From the IMG/VR virus record IMGVR_UViG_3300043432_000152, positions 1-25,591 of that record: a stretch of DNA of 25,591 nt; one strand, given 5' to 3'. The notes below the pieces were generated by a model that was not told the DNA's origin, did no database searches, and saw only the letters and a program-made list of their open reading frames with translations. This DNA comes from a virus. Its lineage: Duplodnaviria > Caudoviricetes. Every line of letters starts with the position of its first letter. Within the stretch, counting starts at the first letter, position 1. Made by a program: the position numbers and the translations under genes. This document shows, in pieces, positions 765 to 15,916 of this stretch.

Positions 765-797
765 TTCACCGCCTAGTTCACAGAGGACGCGGAGAAC
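765..797 (+). repeat. Cassette-flanking repeat L1 (9-mer type)
   Basis: TTCACCGCCTAGTTCACAGAGGACGCGGAGAAC; 29/33 identical to 5344-5376 and 28/32 to the reverse complement of 3750-3781. Its GGAG lies 8 nt before ATG 803. Confidence 0.9.
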
Positions 798-802
798 GGC
801 AC

Positions 803-1093
803 ATGCCATACAGCGATGAATATGAGAAGGAGGTGCGGCTTTTAGAGGCCTGGTTTATCGAGCAGATCGCCGGGTTGGAGCCGCTTTCCCTGACGACGGC
901 GGAGTACAAGATCGGAACGGACGCAGTGCCGGAACCCTGGAAGGGCATCGTGGCAGAGGCGGGAAAGATTTGGCTGGCACACCGGAATTACGAGCTTTCA
1001 TACAATCAGATTTGCCGAGCCTTCTTTGCCGCGGCTGACAAGTGTGGTTTGGCGCTGAGATTCCCAGCGCCGGGTGCAAAAAGTTCGTTGTAG
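803..1093 (+). CDS. Hypothetical accessory protein (96 aa, MPYSDEYEKE...)
   Basis: ATG 803 with GGAG RBS; more A/T-ending codons than the core genes; true start of the 329..1093 ORF. Confidence 0.75.
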   Translation: MPYSDEYEKEVRLLEAWFIEQIAGLEPLSLTTAEYKIGTDAVPEPWKGIVAEAGKIWLAHRNYELSYNQICRAFFAAADKCGLALRFPAPGAKSSL

Positions 1094-1123
1094 TTCTTAG
1101 CGTCTTTGCGGCTTGGCGTGAGA
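1093..1123 (-). repeat. Cassette-flanking repeat R1 (8-mer type)
   Basis: GTTCTTAGCGTCTTTGCGGCTTGGCGTGAGA begins at the G of the TAG stop; the reverse complement has CGCCAAGC/CGCAAAGA/CGCTAAGA units. Confidence 0.75.
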
Positions 1124-1133
1124 CGGGGTGACG

Positions 1134-1310
1134 ATGAATCGGCCGGGGCATCATACGCTGTGTGCGGCGCGGGAGCTGGCCAGGGGCAAGGCTCACCGGT
1201 GCCGGGACTGTTCGGCGGTGCTGAACAGCCGCAACCCGCTGCGGGTATGCGGGACGTGCACGCGCAAGCGGGCGGAGTCGGGGCGGCTGCTGAAGGGGAA
1301 CTTCAAGTAA
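1134..1310 (+). CDS. Small zinc-finger-like protein
   Basis: CRDC...CGTC pair; fills the gap between repeats; GGGGTG upstream (alternative GTG start at 1128). Confidence 0.65.
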   Translation: MNRPGHHTLCAARELARGKAHRCRDCSAVLNSRNPLRVCGTCTRKRAESGRLLKGNFK

Positions 1311-1312
1311 GG

Positions 1313-1347
1313 CAAATTCGAAGCACGAAGCTCGAAATCCGAAAGGG
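1313..1347 (+). repeat. Degenerate 7-mer tandem array
   Basis: CAAATTC GAAGCAC GAAGCTC GAAATCC GAAAGGG, between stop 1310 and ATG 1355. Confidence 0.75.
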
Positions 1348-1354
1348 GCTGGGC

Positions 1355-1933
1355 ATGAGCGAGGGGAATGGGCAGGAGCCTGGGCAGGAGGCGGAACAGA
1401 AGGTGGACCAACCGCAAGCGGAAGGGCCGGCCGGAGCGCCGACGGGTCTACTGCCGTACGGGCCGGAAGATGTGCTGGCGCTGGCGCAGCGGGTGCAGAA
1501 GGGGCTGGCGGAGCGGCAGGCGGCCGAGGCGAAGGCGGCGGCGCGGGGGGAACCGGGGCTGCCGGAACTGACGCCAGAGGAACGCGTGGCGCTTGCTCAG
1601 GCGCCGCTCACCTGGGAAGAGGCGCAGCGGCTGCTGGTGACGATCAACTTCCTGGCGGAGCGCGCGGGGGCGATGAAGGCGGAGCTGGACGAGGTTGTGC
1701 CGTTCAAGAACAACGCGGTGAACGTGCTGGCGGCGCTGGCGCTCAAGTGCGGGGGCTGGTTCGATCTGACCGAGGCTCAGATGGCCAGGGTGCCGCAGGG
1801 CGCGAGCGTGCAGATCGGGCTGCTTAAGGATGAATGGACGGGCAAGGAGAAGCTGCGGGTGAGCGTGCCGTCGCCGCCGCTGGACCCCAACGCGGGGCGC
1901 GGGCTGGTGCTGCCGGGGAACTTCCAGCGGTAG
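1355..1933 (+). CDS. Hypothetical phage protein (MSEGNGQEPG...)
   Basis: Core-like GC3 codon usage; ATG 1355 after AAAGGGG; helical central region. Confidence 0.8.
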   Translation: MSEGNGQEPGQEAEQKVDQPQAEGPAGAPTGLLPYGPEDVLALAQRVQKGLAERQAAEAKAAARGEPGLPELTPEERVALAQAPLTWEEAQRLLVTINFLAERAGAMKAELDEVVPFKNNAVNVLAALALKCGGWFDLTEAQMARVPQGASVQIGLLKDEWTGKEKLRVSVPSPPLDPNAGRGLVLPGNFQR

Positions 1934-1948
1934 GAAAGCGGGGCTGTT

Positions 1949-1982
1949 TTTCACCATAGAGCGCGTAGAGTGCGCGGGGAGG
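1949..1982 (+). repeat. Cassette-flanking repeat L2 (9-mer type, degenerate)
   Basis: TTTCACCATAGAGCGCGTAGAGTGCGCGGGGAGG; 1949-1973 is 18/25 identical to the reverse complement of 2243-2267; ends in the GGAGG RBS of 1989. Confidence 0.7.
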
Positions 1983-1988
1983 CTGACG

Positions 1989-2243
1989 ATGGACGAGCGA
2001 GTTCTAAAACTAGCGAAGGCTTACGGCACCTCGAAGATTCACACGCGCAAGTGTTCCATGTGTAATTACCCGTTAGGCTACATCTTCAAGGATGGCGCGC
2101 TGGTCTACGATGCCGGATGCGACTGTACGAGCAGTTACAGCCTGGAGCCACGCATGGTGTCGGATTTGACGGATTGGCTGGACATGAACAAACCAGAACT
2201 ATTCGACCGCCTGATGCGTGAAGCGCCGGGTGCTCAGAGTTAG
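1989..2243 (+). CDS. Small Cys-containing accessory protein (putative Zn-binding)
   Basis: GGAGG RBS; CSMC and GCDC motifs; A/T-richer than the core genes. Confidence 0.8.
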   Translation: MDERVLKLAKAYGTSKIHTRKCSMCNYPLGYIFKDGALVYDAGCDCTSSYSLEPRMVSDLTDWLDMNKPELFDRLMREAPGAQS

Positions 2244-2267
2244 TTCTCCGCGTGCTCTGCGGTGAAA
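2243..2267 (-). repeat. Cassette-flanking repeat R2
   Basis: GTTCTCCGCGTGCTCTGCGGTGAAA starting at the G of the TAG stop. Confidence 0.85.
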
Positions 2268-2276
2268 GGTTGTGCG

Positions 2277-2912
2277 ATGAGCAAGGTGGCGGCGCGCATC
2301 CGGCGGGTGAAGTACGGGCAGGGGCTGGCGGCGAACCTGACGCAGCGGGCGGCGGCGCTGGCGGCGGGGTACCGGGAGTGCCCGAGCCTGGACGCGCTGG
2401 CTTCGAAGCTGGCGAAGCACCCGGAAGTACAGGCGGAGATCGCGCGTTGCCAGGCGGCGAGCCGCGCAAAGGCGGTGGCGAAGCGGCGGCGGGCGCTGGA
2501 GATCCTGACGCAGCAGCTCGAGTTCGACCTGGGGCCGTACATCGAGGAATACGAGGCGCCGGTGCTGACCCTGACGGGCCAGGCCCTGGGCGCGGATGGA
2601 AAGCCGATGATGCAGAAGAAGCTGCGCATCGACGTGAAGAAGATCAAGGAGGACAAGAAGGCGCATCTGCTGGCGGGGCTGGAGATTCGCAAAGACGGCA
2701 GCATCAAGTTCAACCTGCACGACAAGCAGGGCGCGATCGACCGGCTGGCGAAGCTGCGGGGGTGGAACAAGCCGGAGAAGGTGCAGCACAGCGGGAGCGT
2801 GGGGCTGGGGCGTGACCCGGCGCAGATGACGCAGGCGGAGATCGACGCGGAGCTGGCGGCGCTGGAGCGGGCACGGGCGCCGCAACGGCGCCACGAAGAC
2901 ACGAAGAAGTGA
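2277..2912 (+). CDS. terS: Terminase small subunit
   Basis: N-terminal HTH-like NLTQRAAALAAGY...ASKLAKHPEVQAEI and C-terminal KFNLHDKQGAIDRLAK, typical of TerS; upstream of TerL. Confidence 0.85.
   Translation: MSKVAARIRRVKYGQGLAANLTQRAAALAAGYRECPSLDALASKLAKHPEVQAEIARCQAASRAKAVAKRRRALEILTQQLEFDLGPYIEEYEAPVLTLTGQALGADGKPMMQKKLRIDVKKIKEDKKAHLLAGLEIRKDGSIKFNLHDKQGAIDRLAKLRGWNKPEKVQHSGSVGLGRDPAQMTQAEIDAELAALERARAPQRRHEDTKK
2890..2908 (+). repeat. Cassette-flanking repeat L3 (8-mer type) within the TerS 3' end
   Basis: GCCACGAAGACACGAAGAA (CACGAAGA x2) encodes the HEDTKK end of TerS; 15/19 identical to the reverse complement of 1094-1112. Confidence 0.65.
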
Positions 2913-2934
2913 AGCCGCACGAGGAAAGGAACGT

Positions 2935-3750
2935 ATGATAGCACGTGTTTTTCCAAGAAGGACCAAGGCAACCCCTACAGATGCACTTTCATTCTGTGGG
3001 CCGCCCGACCTTTTCGCGGGCACGCTTGGGATAACGGAGGTTCATGTTTCTGTTGTGTTTACCTGGGATATTGAGCGTGGGCAGGCGTTACGCACCGCAT
3101 GGGAGCGCATTGCTCCAGCCAAGATCGGCGGCCCGGCGCTAGGGCAGCGTGGAGAGTTTTTTGAGCCAGGCAAATATCTGCGGCGCGGCTATACGATTAC
3201 GAGCCGCGGGTGCCCGCGCGACTGCTGGTTTTGCCGAGTTCCCAAAGTGGAAGGCCGCCTACGGGAATTGCCGATCGTGCCAGGCTGGAAGGTGCAGGAT
3301 GATAACTTATTGGCAACAAGTCGGGCCCACTTCAGCTCTGTTGTTAATATGCTAAAGGAACAACCAGAGCCGGCCGAGTTCACGGGCGGTTTAGAGGCGC
3401 TGCTTTTGGAGGACTGGCACGTGGAAGGGCTCGCGAGTCTGAGCCCTAAGCCGACCTGTTTTTTTGCTTACGACCCTGGCGATAAGCTGGAAACGCTTGA
3501 AATTGCGGCCAAGAAAATGCTATCTGCAGGGTTCACTACTGCAGGGCACAGGCTTCGTTGCTACGTTTTGATTGGCTGGCCGGCCGATAAGATTGAAGAC
3601 GCCGAGCACCGTTTAAGGCAGATGCTCGCAATCGGGTTTACGCCCATGGCAATGCTTTGGAGAAACCCCAGAAGTGGGCTGCCTATTGCAGATGAGTGGC
3701 GACGTTTCCAGCGGGAGTGGGCACGCCCCGCGATCATCCATAGTAGGTAG
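2935..3750 (+). CDS. Radical SAM superfamily protein inserted between terS and terL
   Basis: TSRGCPRDCWFC matches the CxxxCxxC [4Fe-4S] motif; DDNLLA and GGLEA segments; AAAGGA RBS; atypical A/T-richer codons. Confidence 0.85.
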   Translation: MIARVFPRRTKATPTDALSFCGPPDLFAGTLGITEVHVSVVFTWDIERGQALRTAWERIAPAKIGGPALGQRGEFFEPGKYLRRGYTITSRGCPRDCWFCRVPKVEGRLRELPIVPGWKVQDDNLLATSRAHFSSVVNMLKEQPEPAEFTGGLEALLLEDWHVEGLASLSPKPTCFFAYDPGDKLETLEIAAKKMLSAGFTTAGHRLRCYVLIGWPADKIEDAEHRLRQMLAIGFTPMAMLWRNPRSGLPIADEWRRFQREWARPAIIHSR

Positions 3751-3781
3751 TTCTCCGTGTGCTCTGTGAATTAGGTGGTGA
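3750..3781 (-). repeat. Cassette-flanking repeat R3
   Basis: GTTCTCCGTGTGCTCTGTGAATTAGGTGGTGA starting at the G of TAG; 28/32 to L1 in inverted orientation; its AGGTGG is placed as the RBS for terL. Confidence 0.9.
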
Positions 3782-3785
3782 GCTT

Positions 3786-5336
3786 ATGACCACGGCGCTG
3801 CTGAACCGGCGGGCGTTGGCGCTGGAGCGGGAGCGGGCGCTGCGGGCTCGGGACCCGCTGCTGGCGGCGTTCCGGTCGGCCACGGCCGCGCAGCGGGGCT
3901 GGATCGAGAGCACGGCGCGCGAGAAGGGCGCGGAAGGCGGCAACCAGAGCGGCAAGACGCGCTCGGTGATCGTGGATTTCCTCTTGCAGGCCTTAGGGAT
4001 CCATCCTTCGCGCCGCTGGGTTCCGCCGGTGCCCGGCGCGACGTGGAAGGGCTGGTATTCGACCACCACCTACCAACTGTTCGCGGAGCAGGGCTGGCAC
4101 CACATGCGCAGCCTGCTGCTCTTTGCCGGCGAGCAGGTGCCCAAGAGCGGCGCGCAGACGCGGCGCATCGTGGAGATCGGCTGGGACAAGAAGAGCCCCG
4201 AGCGCGTGAAGTACCTCAAGCTGAAGCGCGAGGACGGGCACCTGGCGGAGATCTACATCAAGAGCTACGACCAGGGCCGGCAGGAGTTCCAGTCCGCCGA
4301 GGTGGACTACCTGGCGCTGGACGAGGAGTGCCCGGAGGAGATCTACGAGGAGGCTCAGCCGCGCATCCTGCGCCGCGGCGGGCAGATCGGGGTCGGGGCT
4401 ACGCCCGTCGAAGGGGTGCAGTGGCTGGAAGAGCTGCGGGCTCGAGCGGAGAAGGGCGACCCGGACGTCTTCCATACCCGGTTCAGCACGATCGACAACC
4501 CGAGCCTGTCGCCTGCGGACCTGTCCAAGCTGGTGAAGCGCTTCGAGGGCCGGCCGGACCTGGCGCGGTTGCGGCTCGAAGGCTACCCGGTGGTGGACGA
4601 GGGCAAGGTGTATCCGGACGTGATCTTTAACGTGCCGGGGCGGATCGTGAAGCCGTTCACCATCGGCGGCGAGTGGGCCAAGTACCGGGGGATCGACCAC
4701 GGGGTGCACGTCTGCGCGGGGCTGTGGGTGGCGGTGGCGCCGGGGCGGAAGAAGATCGCGCTGTACCGCGAGTACTACGGCGAGGACGTGGAGCCGGTGG
4801 TCGGGCGGGGCCTGGATGAGCACGGGGTGCCGCTGGACCGGGGCAACGCGGCGAACATCCGCATCTTAAGCCAGGAGGACGGCGGGGAGCACATCTACCA
4901 GGAGAGCATCATCGACAAGGCGACCCTTGGTAGTGGGCAGGAGACGGGCACGCCTTTGATCGAGCTGTGGGAAGAGGCGGGGGTGCGCTGCGAGGCCTGC
5001 CCGGACAACCGGCTGGAGCCTGGGATCGAGCGGGTGAAGAACCTGATGGCGGAGCGGGCTCCGGATGGTACGCCGCTGCTGGTGATCTTCGATACATGCA
5101 CGCACTACCTGCGCGAGCGGCGGCTGTACAGCCGGCAGCCGCGGCGGGAGAAGGGCGACGACGGGCCGATGCGCCCGGTAAAGCGGGTGGACCACACGCA
5201 GGACGTGCTCAGGTACCTGGTGGCGCTGGGGCTGGAGCCCGCGGCGCCGAAGCCGCCGCCGGTGCCGCCGCAGGGCACGATCGGGCGGAAGTTCTGGGAG
5301 CAGCGGAACCGGAAGGTGCGAAAGAGCACGCTGTAA
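3786..5336 (+). CDS. terL: Terminase large subunit
   Basis: Walker A GGNQSGKT, Walker B YLALDEE, GATP coupling motif, RNase H-like nuclease GIDHG...DHTQDVLRY. Confidence 0.95.
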   Translation: MTTALLNRRALALERERALRARDPLLAAFRSATAAQRGWIESTAREKGAEGGNQSGKTRSVIVDFLLQALGIHPSRRWVPPVPGATWKGWYSTTTYQLFAEQGWHHMRSLLLFAGEQVPKSGAQTRRIVEIGWDKKSPERVKYLKLKREDGHLAEIYIKSYDQGRQEFQSAEVDYLALDEECPEEIYEEAQPRILRRGGQIGVGATPVEGVQWLEELRARAEKGDPDVFHTRFSTIDNPSLSPADLSKLVKRFEGRPDLARLRLEGYPVVDEGKVYPDVIFNVPGRIVKPFTIGGEWAKYRGIDHGVHVCAGLWVAVAPGRKKIALYREYYGEDVEPVVGRGLDEHGVPLDRGNAANIRILSQEDGGEHIYQESIIDKATLGSGQETGTPLIELWEEAGVRCEACPDNRLEPGIERVKNLMAERAPDGTPLLVIFDTCTHYLRERRLYSRQPRREKGDDGPMRPVKRVDHTQDVLRYLVALGLEPAAPKPPPVPPQGTIGRKFWEQRNRKVRKSTL

Positions 5337-5343
5337 GGGCTTA

Positions 5344-5376
5344 TTCACCGCAGCGTTCGCAGAGGACGCGGAGAAC
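5344..5376 (+). repeat. Cassette-flanking repeat at the 3' end of the HTH gene
   Basis: TTCACCGCAGCGTTCGCAGAGGACGCGGAGAAC, 29/33 to L1; on the minus strand it reads TAG-CT-GTTCTCC after the HTH stop. Confidence 0.9.
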
Positions 5377-5378
5377 AG

Positions 5379-5606
5379 CTACGACTTGAGGATGCTGGCG
5401 CCGAAGCCCGGCGGGGTGGGCGTGTAGGGCTTGGGTTGCCAGGCTTTGTTGATGGTGGGGAGGTGGACGCGCCAGCGGTGGCCGGCTTTGGTGGCGCCGG
5501 GGAGCTGGCCGCGCTGGGCGAGTTTCCGCAGGGACTGCCACTTATAGCCGAAGATTTTGGCGGCCTCACGCAGGCTGAGGTATTCGCTTGCAGGCGGCTG
5601 GCTCAT
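5379..5606 (-). CDS. Excisionase-like (MerR-type winged HTH) DNA-binding protein
   Basis: YLSLREAAKIFG...LRKLAQRGQLPGATKAGHRWRV; start ATG at 5606 after AAAGGAAC; the only convincing minus-strand gene. Confidence 0.85.
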   Translation of the reverse strand: MSQPPASEYLSLREAAKIFGYKWQSLRKLAQRGQLPGATKAGHRWRVHLPTINKAWQPKPYTPTPPGFGASILKS

Positions 5607-5609
5607 CTT

Positions 5610-5640
5610 GTTCCTTTGCAGGTTATGCAGGTATTGCACT
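5610..5640. promoter_or_regulatory. 9-nt-period TGCA direct repeats upstream of the HTH gene, possible operator
   Basis: TGCA at 5617, 5626 and 5635 (TTTGCAGG TTATGCAGG TATTGCAC), in the AT-richer divergent region between HTH and portal. Confidence 0.4.
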
Positions 5641-5788
5641 TTTCGAGCCGCGAAGGTGGCTCAATGTGGCTTAATGCGGGCTAATCGTCCCATCTGCAAG
5701 CAAAAAAAATTGCATAAAGCGAAAGTCCGCCGGAAGAGTACAGGCTGACGAAGTTAAGTACGGCCAAGGCCAGCGGCGAGGGTGAGGT

Positions 5789-8535: not shown

Positions 8536-9651
8536 ATGGCGGACGAAGACGTAGGCGGCGCAGGCGCAGGGGACGCCGGCAGTGCCGTGGCGGAAGCGCC
8601 GCGCACTGGGGCGGACCTGGCGCGGGCGTTCGAAGCGGCGCCGGACGGCGAACCGGAAGCGGTGGTGGACCCCACGCAAGTAGGGCGCGCGGGGCAAGCA
8701 CCGGCGGGAGTTCAGGCCGGCGCAGCCGCGGCAGGGGCGGGTGGTGTGCAGGCGGGCTGGGAGGCTCAGGCGTTGCCGCCGGGGCATCCGGGCTTGCAGG
8801 CGGGCCTAAGGACCTGGGGCGACCTCAACAAGCGCTACCAGAGTTCGAGCCACGAAGTTCGGCATTACCAGCAGCAGGTGCAGCAGCAGACGGAGCTGGT
8901 GGCGGAGTACCGGCAGTTGATCCGGGCGATGGACGCGGAGCTGAAGAAGGGCCCGGGCGCGGGCATCGGCCAGGCAGTGGGCGGGCAGGGCCGGCCGCAG
9001 CAGCCGGGCCAAGGCCAGCAGCCGATTCCGGGCTTCGATTCGCTCGAGCAGTACAGCTTTGAGATGAAGCAGAACCCCGGCGCGACGCTGCGCAAGATGA
9101 TCCAGGCGGCGGTGCGCGAGGACAAGGGGCTGGGCAAGGAAGTGCTGGACCCGCTGGTGCAGGAGCGTTTGCAGCCGCTGCAGATGGACGCGGAGCTCCG
9201 CGGGGTGCAGGCGGCGGGGGCGCAGTTCTTTGCCGAGCACCCGGAATGCCGCAGCGCGGAGCACCCGGTGGCGATCGCCATGAACCAGTTCATGCAGAGC
9301 AAGGGCTGGCTGCGGGACGATCCGCGCACGGGTGAGAAGGGGCTGGTGAAGGCGGCGCGGATGCTGCAGGCGCTGGGTGAGGACCCGTTCAGCTACGCCT
9401 TTGCGAAGGTGGCGCCGCAGTTCCAGGCGGTGCAGGCGCAGCAGGTGAAGGCGGCCGAAGCAAAGCTGGGCGAGAAGCGCGCGACCGCGGGTACGGCGAG
9501 GCCCGGCACGGCGGGCCACGGAGTGCCGGCGAAGCGCACGCCGGGGCAGGGATTTGGAGCGGTGGCGGCGGATCTGCAGGCCAATGGGGTCGAGGTGGAT
9601 CCGAAGTGGGCCAAGATGCTGGAGAGTTCGTACCAGAGCCTCGTGCGGTGA
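8536..9651 (+). CDS. Putative capsid scaffolding protein
   Basis: Between portal and MCP; acidic low-complexity N-terminus, Gln-rich coiled coil, helical C-terminus. Confidence 0.7.
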   Translation: MADEDVGGAGAGDAGSAVAEAPRTGADLARAFEAAPDGEPEAVVDPTQVGRAGQAPAGVQAGAAAAGAGGVQAGWEAQALPPGHPGLQAGLRTWGDLNKRYQSSSHEVRHYQQQVQQQTELVAEYRQLIRAMDAELKKGPGAGIGQAVGGQGRPQQPGQGQQPIPGFDSLEQYSFEMKQNPGATLRKMIQAAVREDKGLGKEVLDPLVQERLQPLQMDAELRGVQAAGAQFFAEHPECRSAEHPVAIAMNQFMQSKGWLRDDPRTGEKGLVKAARMLQALGEDPFSYAFAKVAPQFQAVQAQQVKAAEAKLGEKRATAGTARPGTAGHGVPAKRTPGQGFGAVAADLQANGVEVDPKWAKMLESSYQSLVR

Positions 9652-9654
9652 CGG

Positions 9655-9694
9655 CCGGTTGACTGGTTGGCTGGTTAACTCGTTGGCTGGTCTC
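9655..9694 (+). repeat. Degenerate 8-mer tandem array (CTGGTTGG)
   Basis: CCGGTTGA CTGGTTGG CTGGTTAA CTCGTTGG CTGGTCTC, intergenic. Confidence 0.8.
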
Positions 9695-9750: not shown

Positions 9751-10818
9751 ATGCCTGACATTGGAGCTTTTTTCACCGCGACGCTGAAGCGGCAGATCGT
9801 GCCGGACATCAGCGACACGATCCTGAAGGAAAACTGCTGGCTGCGCTTTTTGAACGAGAAGAAGGCGCTGCACTTCGGCAAGGGCGGCGACGGCGGGCAG
9901 TTCCGCGTGCGCAAGACCGCCAGCGCGATCGGCGGCGCCAGCAGCGACTGGGGCACGCAGAACCTGCAGACCACGCAGCCCTTCGACACGGCGACGTTCG
10001 CCTATAAGCAGTACCGCTGGCCGTTGGTGGTGTCGGGCTTCCAGAAGCGCCGCAACGAGAACGCGGGGCCGGAAGCGAAGATGTTCGACATGTGGATGGA
10101 GCAGGTGGCGGAAGTGCGCCAGGCGGCGATCGAGCGCATCGGGCGGCACATCTACACCGGTTCCGGCACCGACTACACCGGCGACCTTTCGGGCCAGCAG
10201 ATCGACGGCGCCGAGCAGATCATCGACAATGACAACACCTACCTGGGCTTCGCTCGCGCGAGCAACAGCTGGTGGCAGGCGCAGCTCCTGACCTGCGGCG
10301 ACGGCACCACCGCGGGCGGAGCCATGGCCGACCCCACGGCCGAGGGCAACACGCTCTTGCTCCAGAAGATGAACCAGATGTGGGTGACGTGCAGCCAGGG
10401 CGGCAAGCAGACCGGCAAGGGGATGATGGACAAGCTGGCGCAGCAGAAGGACGTGCCGGACTACATCATCACCACGCCGACGGGCTTTCAGTACTACCAG
10501 CGCAGCCTGCAGAGCCAGCAGCGCTACGTGGACCCCAAGGCCGACGCGGCGAAGCAGCTCGCGTATCAGGGCTACGCGCTGGAGTGGGACACGTTCGTGC
10601 CCACCGGCACCGTCCTGGGCCTGGCCGACGCCGACACGCAGGTGATGTACTTCCTGAACAGCAAGTGGATCGACTTCGACTGCGTGGGCGACAGCCTGCT
10701 CGAGGTGCTGGACGAGCAGAAGATCATCAACCCCTGGTCGTACGTGTACCTGATCGGCGGGCAGTACCAGCAGTACAGCCGCAACCCGAGCCGCTTGGGG
10801 CGGTTGCTCTTCGCTTAA
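9751..10818 (+). CDS. Major capsid protein
   Basis: AAGGAG RBS; 355 aa; PDISDTI, HIYTGSG...IDGAEQII, RASNSWWQ, PDYIITT, MYFLNSKWI and SRNPSRLG match the pattern of HK97-fold phage MCPs; follows the scaffold. Confidence 0.88.
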   Translation: MPDIGAFFTATLKRQIVPDISDTILKENCWLRFLNEKKALHFGKGGDGGQFRVRKTASAIGGASSDWGTQNLQTTQPFDTATFAYKQYRWPLVVSGFQKRRNENAGPEAKMFDMWMEQVAEVRQAAIERIGRHIYTGSGTDYTGDLSGQQIDGAEQIIDNDNTYLGFARASNSWWQAQLLTCGDGTTAGGAMADPTAEGNTLLLQKMNQMWVTCSQGGKQTGKGMMDKLAQQKDVPDYIITTPTGFQYYQRSLQSQQRYVDPKADAAKQLAYQGYALEWDTFVPTGTVLGLADADTQVMYFLNSKWIDFDCVGDSLLEVLDEQKIINPWSYVYLIGGQYQQYSRNPSRLGRLLFA

Positions 10819-11402: not shown

Positions 11403-11417
11403 GCGGCTTTGTGGAGA

Positions 11418-11440
11418 GCGGGCAGAGACGCCCGCCCCAC
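11418..11440 (-). repeat. REP-like hairpin, intergenic copy
   Basis: GCGGGCAGAGACGCCCGCCCCAC, one mismatch to 681-703. Confidence 0.8.
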
Positions 11441-12624: not shown

Positions 12625-12633
12625 CGGCTGAAC

Positions 12634-12710
12634 TTTAGTTCGTAGTTTAGGGTTTGTGGTTCCGGGTTAACTGCAAACTACGAACTACAAACCAGGAACC
12701 CGGAACTGAG
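12634..12710. repeat. Inverted 7-mer array, (NNNNGTT)5-(AACNNNN)6
   Basis: TTTAGTT CGTAGTT TAGGGTT TGTGGTT CCGGGTT | AACTGCA AACTACG AACTACA AACCAGG AACCCGG AACTGAG. Confidence 0.9.
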
Positions 12711-12719
12711 GAGTAAGCC

Positions 12720-14200: not shown

Positions 14201-14566
14201 ATGGCGGAAGAGGACGAGAGCGGGCGGATCACGCGGCGGCACGCGGCGGTGCTCACTCATGACGACCTTTCCCGCATCGAGCGCTCCATCGACAGCCTGC
14301 GCAAGGACATCCGCACGGACTTTCAGAGCCTGCTGGAGGCGGTGAAGGAACTGAACGACCGCCACGCGGCGCTGGACGTCTGGAAGGCCACCATCGACCT
14401 GCGGCTGGCCGGAGGCGTGGAGAAGATGAACGCGCTACAGAAGCAGATAGAGGGCTGCGTCGAGAAGAAGATCGTGCTGGCGTACCTGGCGGGCTCGGCG
14501 GTGGGCGGTTCGGCCATCACGGCGCTGGTGATGAAGGCGCTGAGCGCGGGGACGGGTGGACATTGA
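14201..14566 (+). CDS. Coiled-coil protein with C-terminal transmembrane segment (holin-like candidate)
   Basis: AAGGAGG RBS; heptad-like middle; IVLAYLAGSAVGGSAITALVM hydrophobic tail. Confidence 0.55.
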   Translation: MAEEDESGRITRRHAAVLTHDDLSRIERSIDSLRKDIRTDFQSLLEAVKELNDRHAALDVWKATIDLRLAGGVEKMNALQKQIEGCVEKKIVLAYLAGSAVGGSAITALVMKALSAGTGGH

Positions 14567-15378
14567 ACCGAGGTTGGCTGGTTTTCTGGTTGGCGGGTTT
14601 GCTGGCGCTGCCGGGCTGCGTGGGGGACCACCAAGGCCGGCAGGATGTCAGCCAAGGGCAAGCACCGGCGGGCAGGGACGCCCGCCCCACCGGGCCTAAC
14701 CGGAAGCCGGTGCTGGAGGACCTGCCGGAGAGCCGGGGCGAGCTGACCGAGGCGCTGCGCAAGATCGACGCGAGCACGCAGAGCAGCAACAACGCGACGC
14801 AACAGAGCCTGAGCGGGCTGGGGTTGCAGGTGGGCAAGGTGGCGGAGCGGGTCGACGCGGCGCTGGTGAAGTTCGAAGCGGACGTGCAGGTGAGCATCCG
14901 GCAGGAAGTGGCGGCGCAGTTCGAGAGCAACATCAAGGCCAGCCTGGAAGCCAAGGCCGAGGTAGAGGCGCGGGTGCAGGCCAAGGCGTTCAGCGACTTC
15001 TGCCTGGAGCTGCGCAACGAGCTGCGCGTGCAGGCTCAGGCGCAGGCGGCGGCCGCGGCGACGGCTCAGGGGAATGCGGTGGCGGCGCTGAGGAGTGAGA
15101 TCAGCCAGAGCACGGCGACGCTGACGGCGGGGCGGGACAACATCCAGATCACGCCGGAAATGATGAAGGTGCTGCTGGCCTCGATCGGGAGCATGGAGAG
15201 CACGGCGCTGGCGGTGGTGGGGATCGTGATCGGCTGCATGAGCGCGGCCACGGGCATCGTGGCGCTGTTGAGCCGCTACCACAGCCAGGACCTGAAGGTG
15301 TTCGCGGGCGTGGCCGAAGATGCGATCGATGAGGGGCAGAGGAACAAGGAGACGAAGCGTGTACAGCCGAAGAGTTAA
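14563..15378 (+). CDS. Lipoprotein with coiled coil and C-terminal TM helix (spanin-like candidate)
   Basis: TTG start overlapping the upstream TGA; lipobox-like LPGC after a hydrophobic stretch; ALAVVGIVIGCMSAATGIVALLS near the C-terminus. Confidence 0.6.
   Translation: MNRGWLVFWLAGLLALPGCVGDHQGRQDVSQGQAPAGRDARPTGPNRKPVLEDLPESRGELTEALRKIDASTQSSNNATQQSLSGLGLQVGKVAERVDAALVKFEADVQVSIRQEVAAQFESNIKASLEAKAEVEARVQAKAFSDFCLELRNELRVQAQAQAAAAATAQGNAVAALRSEISQSTATLTAGRDNIQITPEMMKVLLASIGSMESTALAVVGIVIGCMSAATGIVALLSRYHSQDLKVFAGVAEDAIDEGQRNKETKRVQPKS
14667..14696 (-). repeat. REP-like hairpin (inside CDS)
   Basis: Identical to 680-709 and translated in the same frame (AGRDARPTGP). Confidence 0.8.
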
Positions 15379-15916
15379 ATGGTTCGCTGGTTGGCTGGTG
15401 ATCTGGTTGGCCGGTTTGCTGGTGCTGCCGGGCTGCAAGAACATCGACGCGGGGATGCTGGGGCAGATCAAGGGGTTGGCGGAGTCGAGCTTGCCGCTGG
15501 CGCAGGACTTCGCGGCGGTGCTGCCGAAGATCACGGCGAAGGACGAGCCGAACGCGGCGGCGGTGAACCGTTTTCTGGTGAGCCACCAGGCGTCGCTGGC
15601 CAAGAGCGCGCGGGCCTGGGCGAATCTCTACAAGGCCGCGCAGTCGGGCAAGCTGAGCAACGCGGCGCTGAAGGATGCGGTGGACGATGCGGAGAGTTCG
15701 GCGCTGGAGCTGCGGACGTGGAACGCCTTCGTGCCGTTCCTCAACGTGAACGCCGACTTTGCCGCGGCTCATACGCAGGCGCTGGCCGACCACGAGGCGC
15801 AGGTGCAGGCTCTGGCGGAGAAGGCGCAGGCGCTGCTGGCGAAGGCCAAGCCTGCGACGGCGCAGCCCGCGGCGGAGGTGGTTCCGGCGACGCCTCAGCA
15901 AAAGGTCGAGGAGTAG
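15359..15916 (+). CDS. Helical lipoprotein
   Basis: GTG 15359 with AGGAG 7 nt upstream; MYSRRVKWFAGWLVIWLAGLLVLPG|C. Confidence 0.7.
   Translation: MYSRRVKWFAGWLVIWLAGLLVLPGCKNIDAGMLGQIKGLAESSLPLAQDFAAVLPKITAKDEPNAAAVNRFLVSHQASLAKSARAWANLYKAAQSGKLSNAALKDAVDDAESSALELRTWNAFVPFLNVNADFAAAHTQALADHEAQVQALAEKAQALLAKAKPATAQPAAEVVPATPQQKVEE

Follow-up and report, generated by a model that had tools for sequence, protein, structure and literature searches.

The window analysed here is the whole of virus record IMGVR_UViG_3300043432_000152, a linear sequence of 25,591 nt from a tailed phage (66% complete). Seven copies of a degenerate repeat, called arms A to G below, lie at gene junctions around its packaging genes terS and terL, with foreign-looking genes on their inner side and core genes on their outer side. 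These arms are members of a family of arrays of two or three heptads that is associated with GxxExxY genes (TIGR04256/PF13366) in bacterial and archaeal genomes; heptad, period and polarity agree, arm C being a degenerate member. An earlier note on this DNA had proposed an undescribed system of mobile single-gene cassettes. We concluded that the phage feature is real, that it is not a self-contained cassette system, and that its gene edges are made of arms whose probable source is a host element with, apparently, no published description. As a tentative reading, to which we give about even weight, these host-derived arms now act as gene edges at which accessory genes are exchanged by ordinary short-homology recombination. 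Table 1 lists the features.

Table 1. Arms and genes of the packaging region of the window.
Feature	Position	Strand	Remarks
Arm A	765..797	+	Purine strand on +; GAG-type heptads, 9-nt period; outer end behind the preceding gene's stop; GGAG in the inner end, with 8 nt to the ATG at 803
96-aa orphan gene	803..1093	+	Codon adaptation index (CAI) 0.36; TAG fused to arm B
Arm B	1093..1118	-	Three AAG-type heptads, 8-nt period; pyrimidine strand on +
Arm C	1950..1982	+	Degenerate GAG-type; contains GGAGG ahead of the 1989 ATG; pairing partner of arm D
84-aa orphan gene, two Cys pairs	1989..2243	+	CAI 0.35; TAG fused to arm D
Arm D	2243..2267	-	Two GAG-type heptads; nearest to the 24-mer of bacteria and archaea
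terS, terminase small subunit	2277..2912	+	PF03592 (3e-9); phrog_51; core gene outside arms D and E
Arm E	2890..2908	+	Two AAG-type heptads; overlaps terS and is read as its last codons
Radical SAM gene	2935..3750	+	phrog_9298 (5e-15); CAI 0.27; TAG fused to arm F
Arm F	3750..3781	-	GAG-type; 28 of 32 nt complementary to arm A; outer part resembles a ribosome-binding site (RBS) ahead of terL
terL, terminase large subunit	3786..5336	+	PF03237; phrog_2 (2e-15); core gene outside arms F and G
Arm G	5344..5376	+	GAG-type; 29/33 identical to arm A
HTH_17 (helix-turn-helix) excisionase-like gene	5379..5606	-	PF12728 (2e-6); CAI 0.46; TAG 2 nt from arm G

A 19-mer core matched the window at 779 (+), 2261 (-), 3768 (-) and 5358 (+) with at most two mismatches, and nowhere else with up to four. 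Our general arm test, which calls two like heptads (CRCNRAK heptads at a period of 8-9 nt), detected six arms (at 779, 1096, 2246, 2892, 3753 and 5358), all within 779-5373, while the remaining 20 kb had none; a Markov null gave 0.37 per window (maximum of two in 30 runs) and three control sets of phage loci gave 0.10-0.54 per 25.6 kb. The seventh copy, arm C, is too degenerate for the test, yet it parses into heptads. No arm matched Rfam (six sources). The arms are of two subtypes, GAG heptads with a 9-nt period (A, C, D, F and G) and AAG heptads with an 8-nt period (B and E), so that 803-1093 and the radical SAM gene each lie between arms of unlike subtype and only 1989-2243 has a like pair. 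Orientation alternates along the seven arms, and all three enclosed plus-strand genes have the purine arm upstream and the pyrimidine arm downstream. The inverted copies reported to flank each of these genes are all present, but two of the three pairs are unlike and the best pairing flanks terL. The reported similarity of up to 29/33 nt between copies was recovered for arms A and G, with 28/33 for A and F, and GAAC does precede the ATG in three cases, of which only the one at 797 is an arm end.

Arms of this family were found in cell genomes. An exact 24-mer from the window copies occurs in about 790 stretches of GTDB (an estimate from 10 of 64 parts, with 122 loci returned), and the 80 titles listed include Planctomycetota, Chloroflexota, Acidobacteriota, Verrucomicrobiota, deltaproteobacteria, Bacteroidota and ANME-1/Methanophagales archaea. 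Among 81 matches in 80 loci with flanks, an inverted partner lay within 100 nt in 41, at 101-200 nt in 4, at 484 nt in one and at 1343 nt in one, while 34 had no partner (7 of them near a contig end). The pair 484 nt apart encloses a GxxExxY gene (PF13366, PD-(D/E)XK), and GxxExxY is encoded in 5/5 genomes behind such loci. Twenty of the 22 GxxExxY genes above the cut-off were examined, the excluded two being halves of one tandem protein: a purine arm stood upstream in 11/20, a pyrimidine arm downstream in 13/20 and a pyrimidine arm upstream in 0/20. Both arms were present in 10/20, and they were of like subtype in 10/10 of those. In one Planctomycetota genome the 19 inverted pairs comprised 18 short hairpins and one long pair, which encloses GxxExxY; no other cargo was found in the pairs of that genome. 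Where the earlier note had suggested a scan of the host genome, the scan of cell genomes turned up GxxExxY genes but mostly short hairpins. The density of arms was 4 in 25.6 kb in phages (which were chosen for having arms) and 56 in 9.8 Mb in one cell genome. We set aside a role of the arms as packaging (pac) sites, since in cell genomes these arms occur as hairpins.

The phage arms share with the GxxExxY element its heptads, period, outer TTCACC end and polarity. They differ from it in that the phage has no nuclease gene, in that other genes lie inside, and in that like arms occur in 1/3 pairs rather than 10/10. The latter difference, together with the rarity of bracketed genes elsewhere (below), speaks against the proposal that single genes move as cassettes between cognate arms. 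No description of these arms or of their GxxExxY element was found in the literature within our reach, which did not extend to subscription papers and supplements. In the accessible parts of the sources, the activity and function of the GxxExxY family are listed as unknown (PMC3424549), and where GxxExxY comes up in one preprint it is just a domain in the neighbourhood (10.1101/2021.01.26.428298).

The genes on the inner side of the window arms stand apart in codon usage, as had been noted. The CAI of the three plus-strand genes (0.27-0.36, lowest in the radical SAM gene) compares with 0.50-0.83 in 27 other genes, and the HTH gene falls in between; this comparison leaves out row g16528, which is out of frame. 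The stops of the three genes, which are those of lowest CAI, coincide exactly with the three pyrimidine-on-sense arms, the G of each TAG being common with the GTTCT of arm B, D or F, and in the HTH gene 2 nt separate the stop from the arm; both observations of the earlier note were confirmed, as was the position of the radical SAM gene between terS and terL. TAG ends 8/30 listed window genes, or 4/26 once the four arm-adjacent genes are set aside. A GTAG shared by three of the four stops was considered as a repetitive extragenic palindromic (REP) tag and rejected, since it is G plus TAG. Searches of IMG/VR for TAG-fused arms elsewhere gave 2 and 48 matches, all chance-like and lacking arm context. 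For the HTH gene, an upstream partner arm was not detected by the two-heptad test. The 96-aa protein has no Pfam, PHROG or NCBIfam family and its protein search matched only itself; the 84-aa protein has no named family either, including in an Atlas search. Among phages the radical SAM gene is a frequent accessory gene, with 59 relatives at 49-60% and two more in the terL kin described below. An arm lies within 120 nt in 0/61 of these relatives and TAG is the stop in 6/61. In 200 bootstrap trees (53 rows, near-duplicates and partial rows excluded) the window gene sits on a long branch and never groups with the copies of the two terL kin.

Integron gene cassettes are promoterless single genes whose stops touch the repeat, and integron sites follow the consensus RYYYAAC...GTTRRRY. 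The stop codons that overlap the arms and the AAC/GTT triplets at the inner ends had brought integrons to mind, but the sequence does not bear out the likeness: GGAGAAC and GTTCTCC or GTTCTTA make up the cores, a single downstream palindrome and the rest of the site structure are absent, and Rfam gave no match. Family scans also found no integrase among the 30 window genes (of a record that is 66% complete). That the genes are integron-like cassettes with attC-type sites moved by a tyrosine recombinase is hardly credible.

Arms are found in other phages as well. An 18-mer core returned 133 viral loci (about 280 estimated; the estimates are 280-310 IMG/VR stretches per pattern), whereas no convincing match was obtained among 50,697 deposited phage records. 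Relatives among these phages frequently have the outer flank and the arm in common and diverge 7-19 nt beyond the 18-mer core, where the third heptad ends. Junctions were compared in 33 whole phage records. At one terL start, two phages are empty (G016, G017), one has the arm only (G023), one has the arm plus a 58-aa gene (G012), one has the arm plus 200 nt of other DNA (G011), and one has other DNA and no arm (G013). The terL end of that family is empty in four records and holds a 49-nt piece of stop plus arm in three. At another site, units of ATG, arm and gene number none in G023, one in G006 and two in G007, the two-unit form having direct arms. Different genes behind the same arm were also seen, and G019 differs from G018 by an arm-only indel. 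A target-site duplication outside terminal inverted repeats is the hallmark of miniature inverted-repeat transposable elements; no empty site was found for the window phage itself, and at the arm-only indels in other phages a clear duplication was not evident by eye. The claim that the repeats mark the edges of acquired DNA is borne out by these empty, arm-only, arm-plus-gene and swapped-gene sites, all of them in other phage families. Cassette junctions at the arms themselves were not borne out: gene gains elsewhere often join in the RBS/ATG or stop region beside the arm, and two further gains have their junction in the RBS/ATG just inside it. Gains joined at RBS/ATG are ordinary phage mosaicism. 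The inner gene usually starts at the arm (35/49). Single genes bracketed by both arms were rare, with 4 contigs among 80 loci and none in 64 further loci; these bracket counts are lower bounds, as the gene caller missed two of the three cargo genes of the window.

Some arm-bearing phages have features of their own. In six of them (G006, G007, G008, G013, G017 and G019) arms are read in frame as N-terminal peptides of small proteins, for example TTEDTENTE, and the same arm-plus-gene unit stands at different sites in G007 and G008. In G019, a 323-aa polymerase/reverse-transcriptase-like gene (L463, 848-1816; phrog_2825, phrog_1423) lies directly outside an arm-bracketed gene of 74 aa; a paralogue of this 74-aa gene, likewise with an arm, is found at 9129-9323. 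The same phage carries a Cas2/VapD-like gene (L464, 19092-19445; PF09827) that is absent in G018, within a 1.2-kb stretch between inverted arms. A phage fragment of 70% GC (L480, G029) has 11 arm matches between structural genes, all with the purine strand on the coding strand, and some of its arms end in GAGAACGGC, as arm A does.

These junctions also bear on an enzyme acting in trans, which the earlier note had invoked. A host GxxExxY protein may bind the array in trans and cut at its inner edge, with repair setting the TA|GTTCT register. Such a role would fit the bracketing of GxxExxY (PF13366) by the arms, the frequent end of homology at the third heptad and the existence of arm-only insertions. 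It would also fit the window arms, in which TA replaces the next heptad at one point; among 123 arms of cell genomes another heptad comes next in 118 and TA in 0. A candidate enzyme family is thus at hand, but no GxxExxY gene was found in the window record or in 40 other arm-bearing phage records (only 5 of which are at least 90% complete), microhomology at the RBS/ATG, lying a few bases inside the arm, was used in several gains, and the family has the activity entry cited above. We consider nuclease-guided capture unlikely, and likewise give a low probability to the broader proposal that GxxExxY and its arms form an undescribed cross-domain gene-capture system, used in trans by arm-collecting phages as a targeted means of gaining and swapping accessory genes, even between terS and terL.

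If the arms serve as gene edges, the outer neighbour should be kept more often than the inner one. In a first polarity test on 28 merged orthologous arm sites, the outer side was kept in 17, the inner in 3 and both in 1, and 7 were unbroken; without the arms used to find the pairs the numbers were 9, 3, 0 and 4. At control junctions the outer:inner ratio was 26:58 for gene starts and 49:47 for gene ends. As this test is biased by non-coding inner DNA, it was repeated on arms with called genes on both sides: of 16 merged sites, 8 kept the outer gene and 3 the inner, compared with 24:46 at control junctions (p=0.02). A second set (64 loci of 80 listed, 16 being dropped as contig repeats or already used) gave 6:1 of 12 sites (control 28:29, p=0.11). 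The outer-kept trend is consistent across the sets and is not decisive.

Several things are shown: what the arms are, where they sit at the junctions and with which polarity, that they are fused to stop codons and to words resembling an RBS, and that gains and swaps in other phages are linked to them. On these the gene-edge reading builds. Heptad arms would have entered the phage, probably from the GxxExxY element of a putative host, and may then have been copied between junctions as modules of stop plus arm and of arm plus RBS/ATG. An arm would stay with its core neighbour because it overlaps the stop of that gene or supplies the next RBS, and incoming genes would join at the arm together with microhomology at the ATG or stop. 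Inverted arms would permit exchange between genomes by two crossovers rather than loop-out, and no dedicated recombinase would be needed.

Relatives of the phage were compared at the same junctions. A terL alignment search provided eight metagenome loci of 38-50% terL identity; a search with the single terL protein gave two loci only (22-24%), a viral scan (9 of 64 parts) gave at least one terL locus (50%), the nearest relatives of the terL protein, P0002, P0003 and P0005, are at 67%, 58% and 52%, and the terS search found no relatives. The eight loci keep the core order and have other genes around terS and terL. The two-heptad test gave two matches in them, in L202 and in L197 (the latter chance-like), so that 1/8 has an arm at the matching junction. 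In L202 a purine arm directly follows the terS stop, in the place and orientation of arm E; between this arm and terL, which begins about 110 nt on, the radical SAM gene is missing. One distant relative, L202, thus fits the prediction of the earlier note, and the others fit in part what that note named as refuting; none is close enough to decide. Two closely related phages of the set have different genes and no arms at one site before terS (L200, 5223-6143; L201, 5652-6470). The genes there are methylase-like (by eye) and radical SAM, and L200 also has two terS-like copies.

Several results weigh against the gene-edge reading. No close relative is available, the best locus having 50% terL identity, and four of the eight terL kin (L197, L198, L200 and L201) exchange genes around terS and terL without arms; L197 and L201 carry an arm-less radical SAM gene there. 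In contigs from two runs of one sample, possibly the source, a single contig spans the region unchanged and no joint was found at any arm; assembled contigs drop rare forms, which limits this search for joints and for mini-circles between direct repeats of the PeSL kind. The polarity is non-significant against 50:50 (p=0.23 in the first gene-level set, p=0.125 in the second), the first set was partly chosen via shared arms, and some sites are common to both sets. Gene differences are not clearly more frequent at arm junctions than at control junctions (12/16 versus 78/149, p=0.11; 7/12 versus 61/161, p=0.22). Short homology alone also fails to explain why three arms of two subtypes have exactly the same TAG register.

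The turnover of genes without arms in the kin, and the rarity of brackets elsewhere, would be expected if repeats and accessory genes merely gather in a tolerant region, where deletion trims the gaps until stop and arm touch and the arms are passive. The phage also carries a REP-like palindrome in three copies and 7- and 8-nt arrays; every gap beside the four genes holds an arm, so bracketing arises by default, and among the stops only TAG can end on the first G of an arm. Passive co-location accounts poorly for the alternating orientation of the seven arms and the exact placement of three pyrimidine-on-sense arms at the stops of lowest CAI, or for inner genes that start at the arm in 35/49 and outer neighbours kept more often than at control junctions. 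We regard it as rather unlikely.

The arms could also act in the transcript: pairing between them would exclude the cargo gene as a loop or silence it while the packaging operon remains coupled, in the manner of an intervening sequence. Predicted folds close the A/B and C/D stems around their genes, and the plus strand pairs better than the minus strand in 11/12 arm pairs. Flank pairing gave z-scores of -2.1 for 803-1093, -4.3 for 1989-2243, -0.9 for the radical SAM gene and -8.9, the best, for terL. The flanks of the radical SAM gene do not pair. For the whole region the z-scores were -0.43 and 0.12, better pairing of the sense strand was seen in only 9/20 GxxExxY cassettes, and strand-biased mutation could give the same wobble pattern. 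A function as RNA stems appears improbable. In the window no sigma-70 promoter-like site was found, and terminator-like sites numbered 3 versus 4.5 expected.

As gene edges, the arms would work like the shuffling by PeSL elements (PeSLs) of T4-like phages, not like an integron. The portions of the PeSL reports available to us describe gene shuffling and propose exchange by general recombination at short homology (PMC2839356; PMC4122927). Both systems have dispersed intergenic repeats at accessory genes, and in PeSLs too one repeat is kept at an empty site (PMC2839356). The same portions present PeSLs as phage promoter-terminator units, whereas the phage arms have no sigma-70 promoter match, are common to cell genomes of two domains, occur in both orientations and lie among packaging genes. 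Boundary sequences of mosaic phages, in the available text of PMC3029335, are likewise short conserved sequences at gene edges and proposed crossover points; the phage arms differ in having a traceable cellular source and a polarity, with the variable side inside. The parts at hand of two papers on REPINs and REP-associated tyrosine transposases (RAYTs) describe doublets that are inverted and have short spacers, as well as singlets and an enzyme gene linked to the repeats, as in the arm family, and name DNA insertion into doublets as one proposed source of singlets (PMC3116915, PMC3733652). By comparison with those parts, arms are direct heptad arrays and not self-palindromes, and the gene of the GxxExxY element is a PD-(D/E)XK gene (PF13366) that lies between the arms, not a HUH transposase; RAYT genes were not searched for.

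How genes are gained at clean phage gene borders is a long-standing question, and boundary sequences are known in few groups, with unclear origin. What is new here is the use of the arms by phages; the boundary sequence can be traced to a cellular repeat family of bacteria and archaea. The arms also give the uncharacterised GxxExxY nuclease family a concrete candidate substrate. Should the nuclease turn out to drive capture, a new kind of gene-exchange system would be at hand; otherwise the arms would plainly illustrate how phages put selfish host repeats to use at the edges of their genes.

The window contains further repeats, and its major head protein gene is at 9751. A 24-nt REP-like palindrome occurs three times (680-703, 11417-11440 and 14667-14690; 0 expected in 100 shuffles), two copies lying within reading frames. 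Arrays with a 7-nt period are found at 1316-1345 and 12630-12712, the latter consisting of two oppositely oriented arrays in a single intergenic gap; they may resemble repeats beside four-helix-bundle genes. Arrays with an 8-nt period, of the GGTTGGCT type, lie at 9655-9691, 14566-14605 and 15379-15420, two of them at gene starts. A 10-nt periodic stretch at 5653-5686, in the gap between the HTH gene and a portal-like gene, is a possible operator region.

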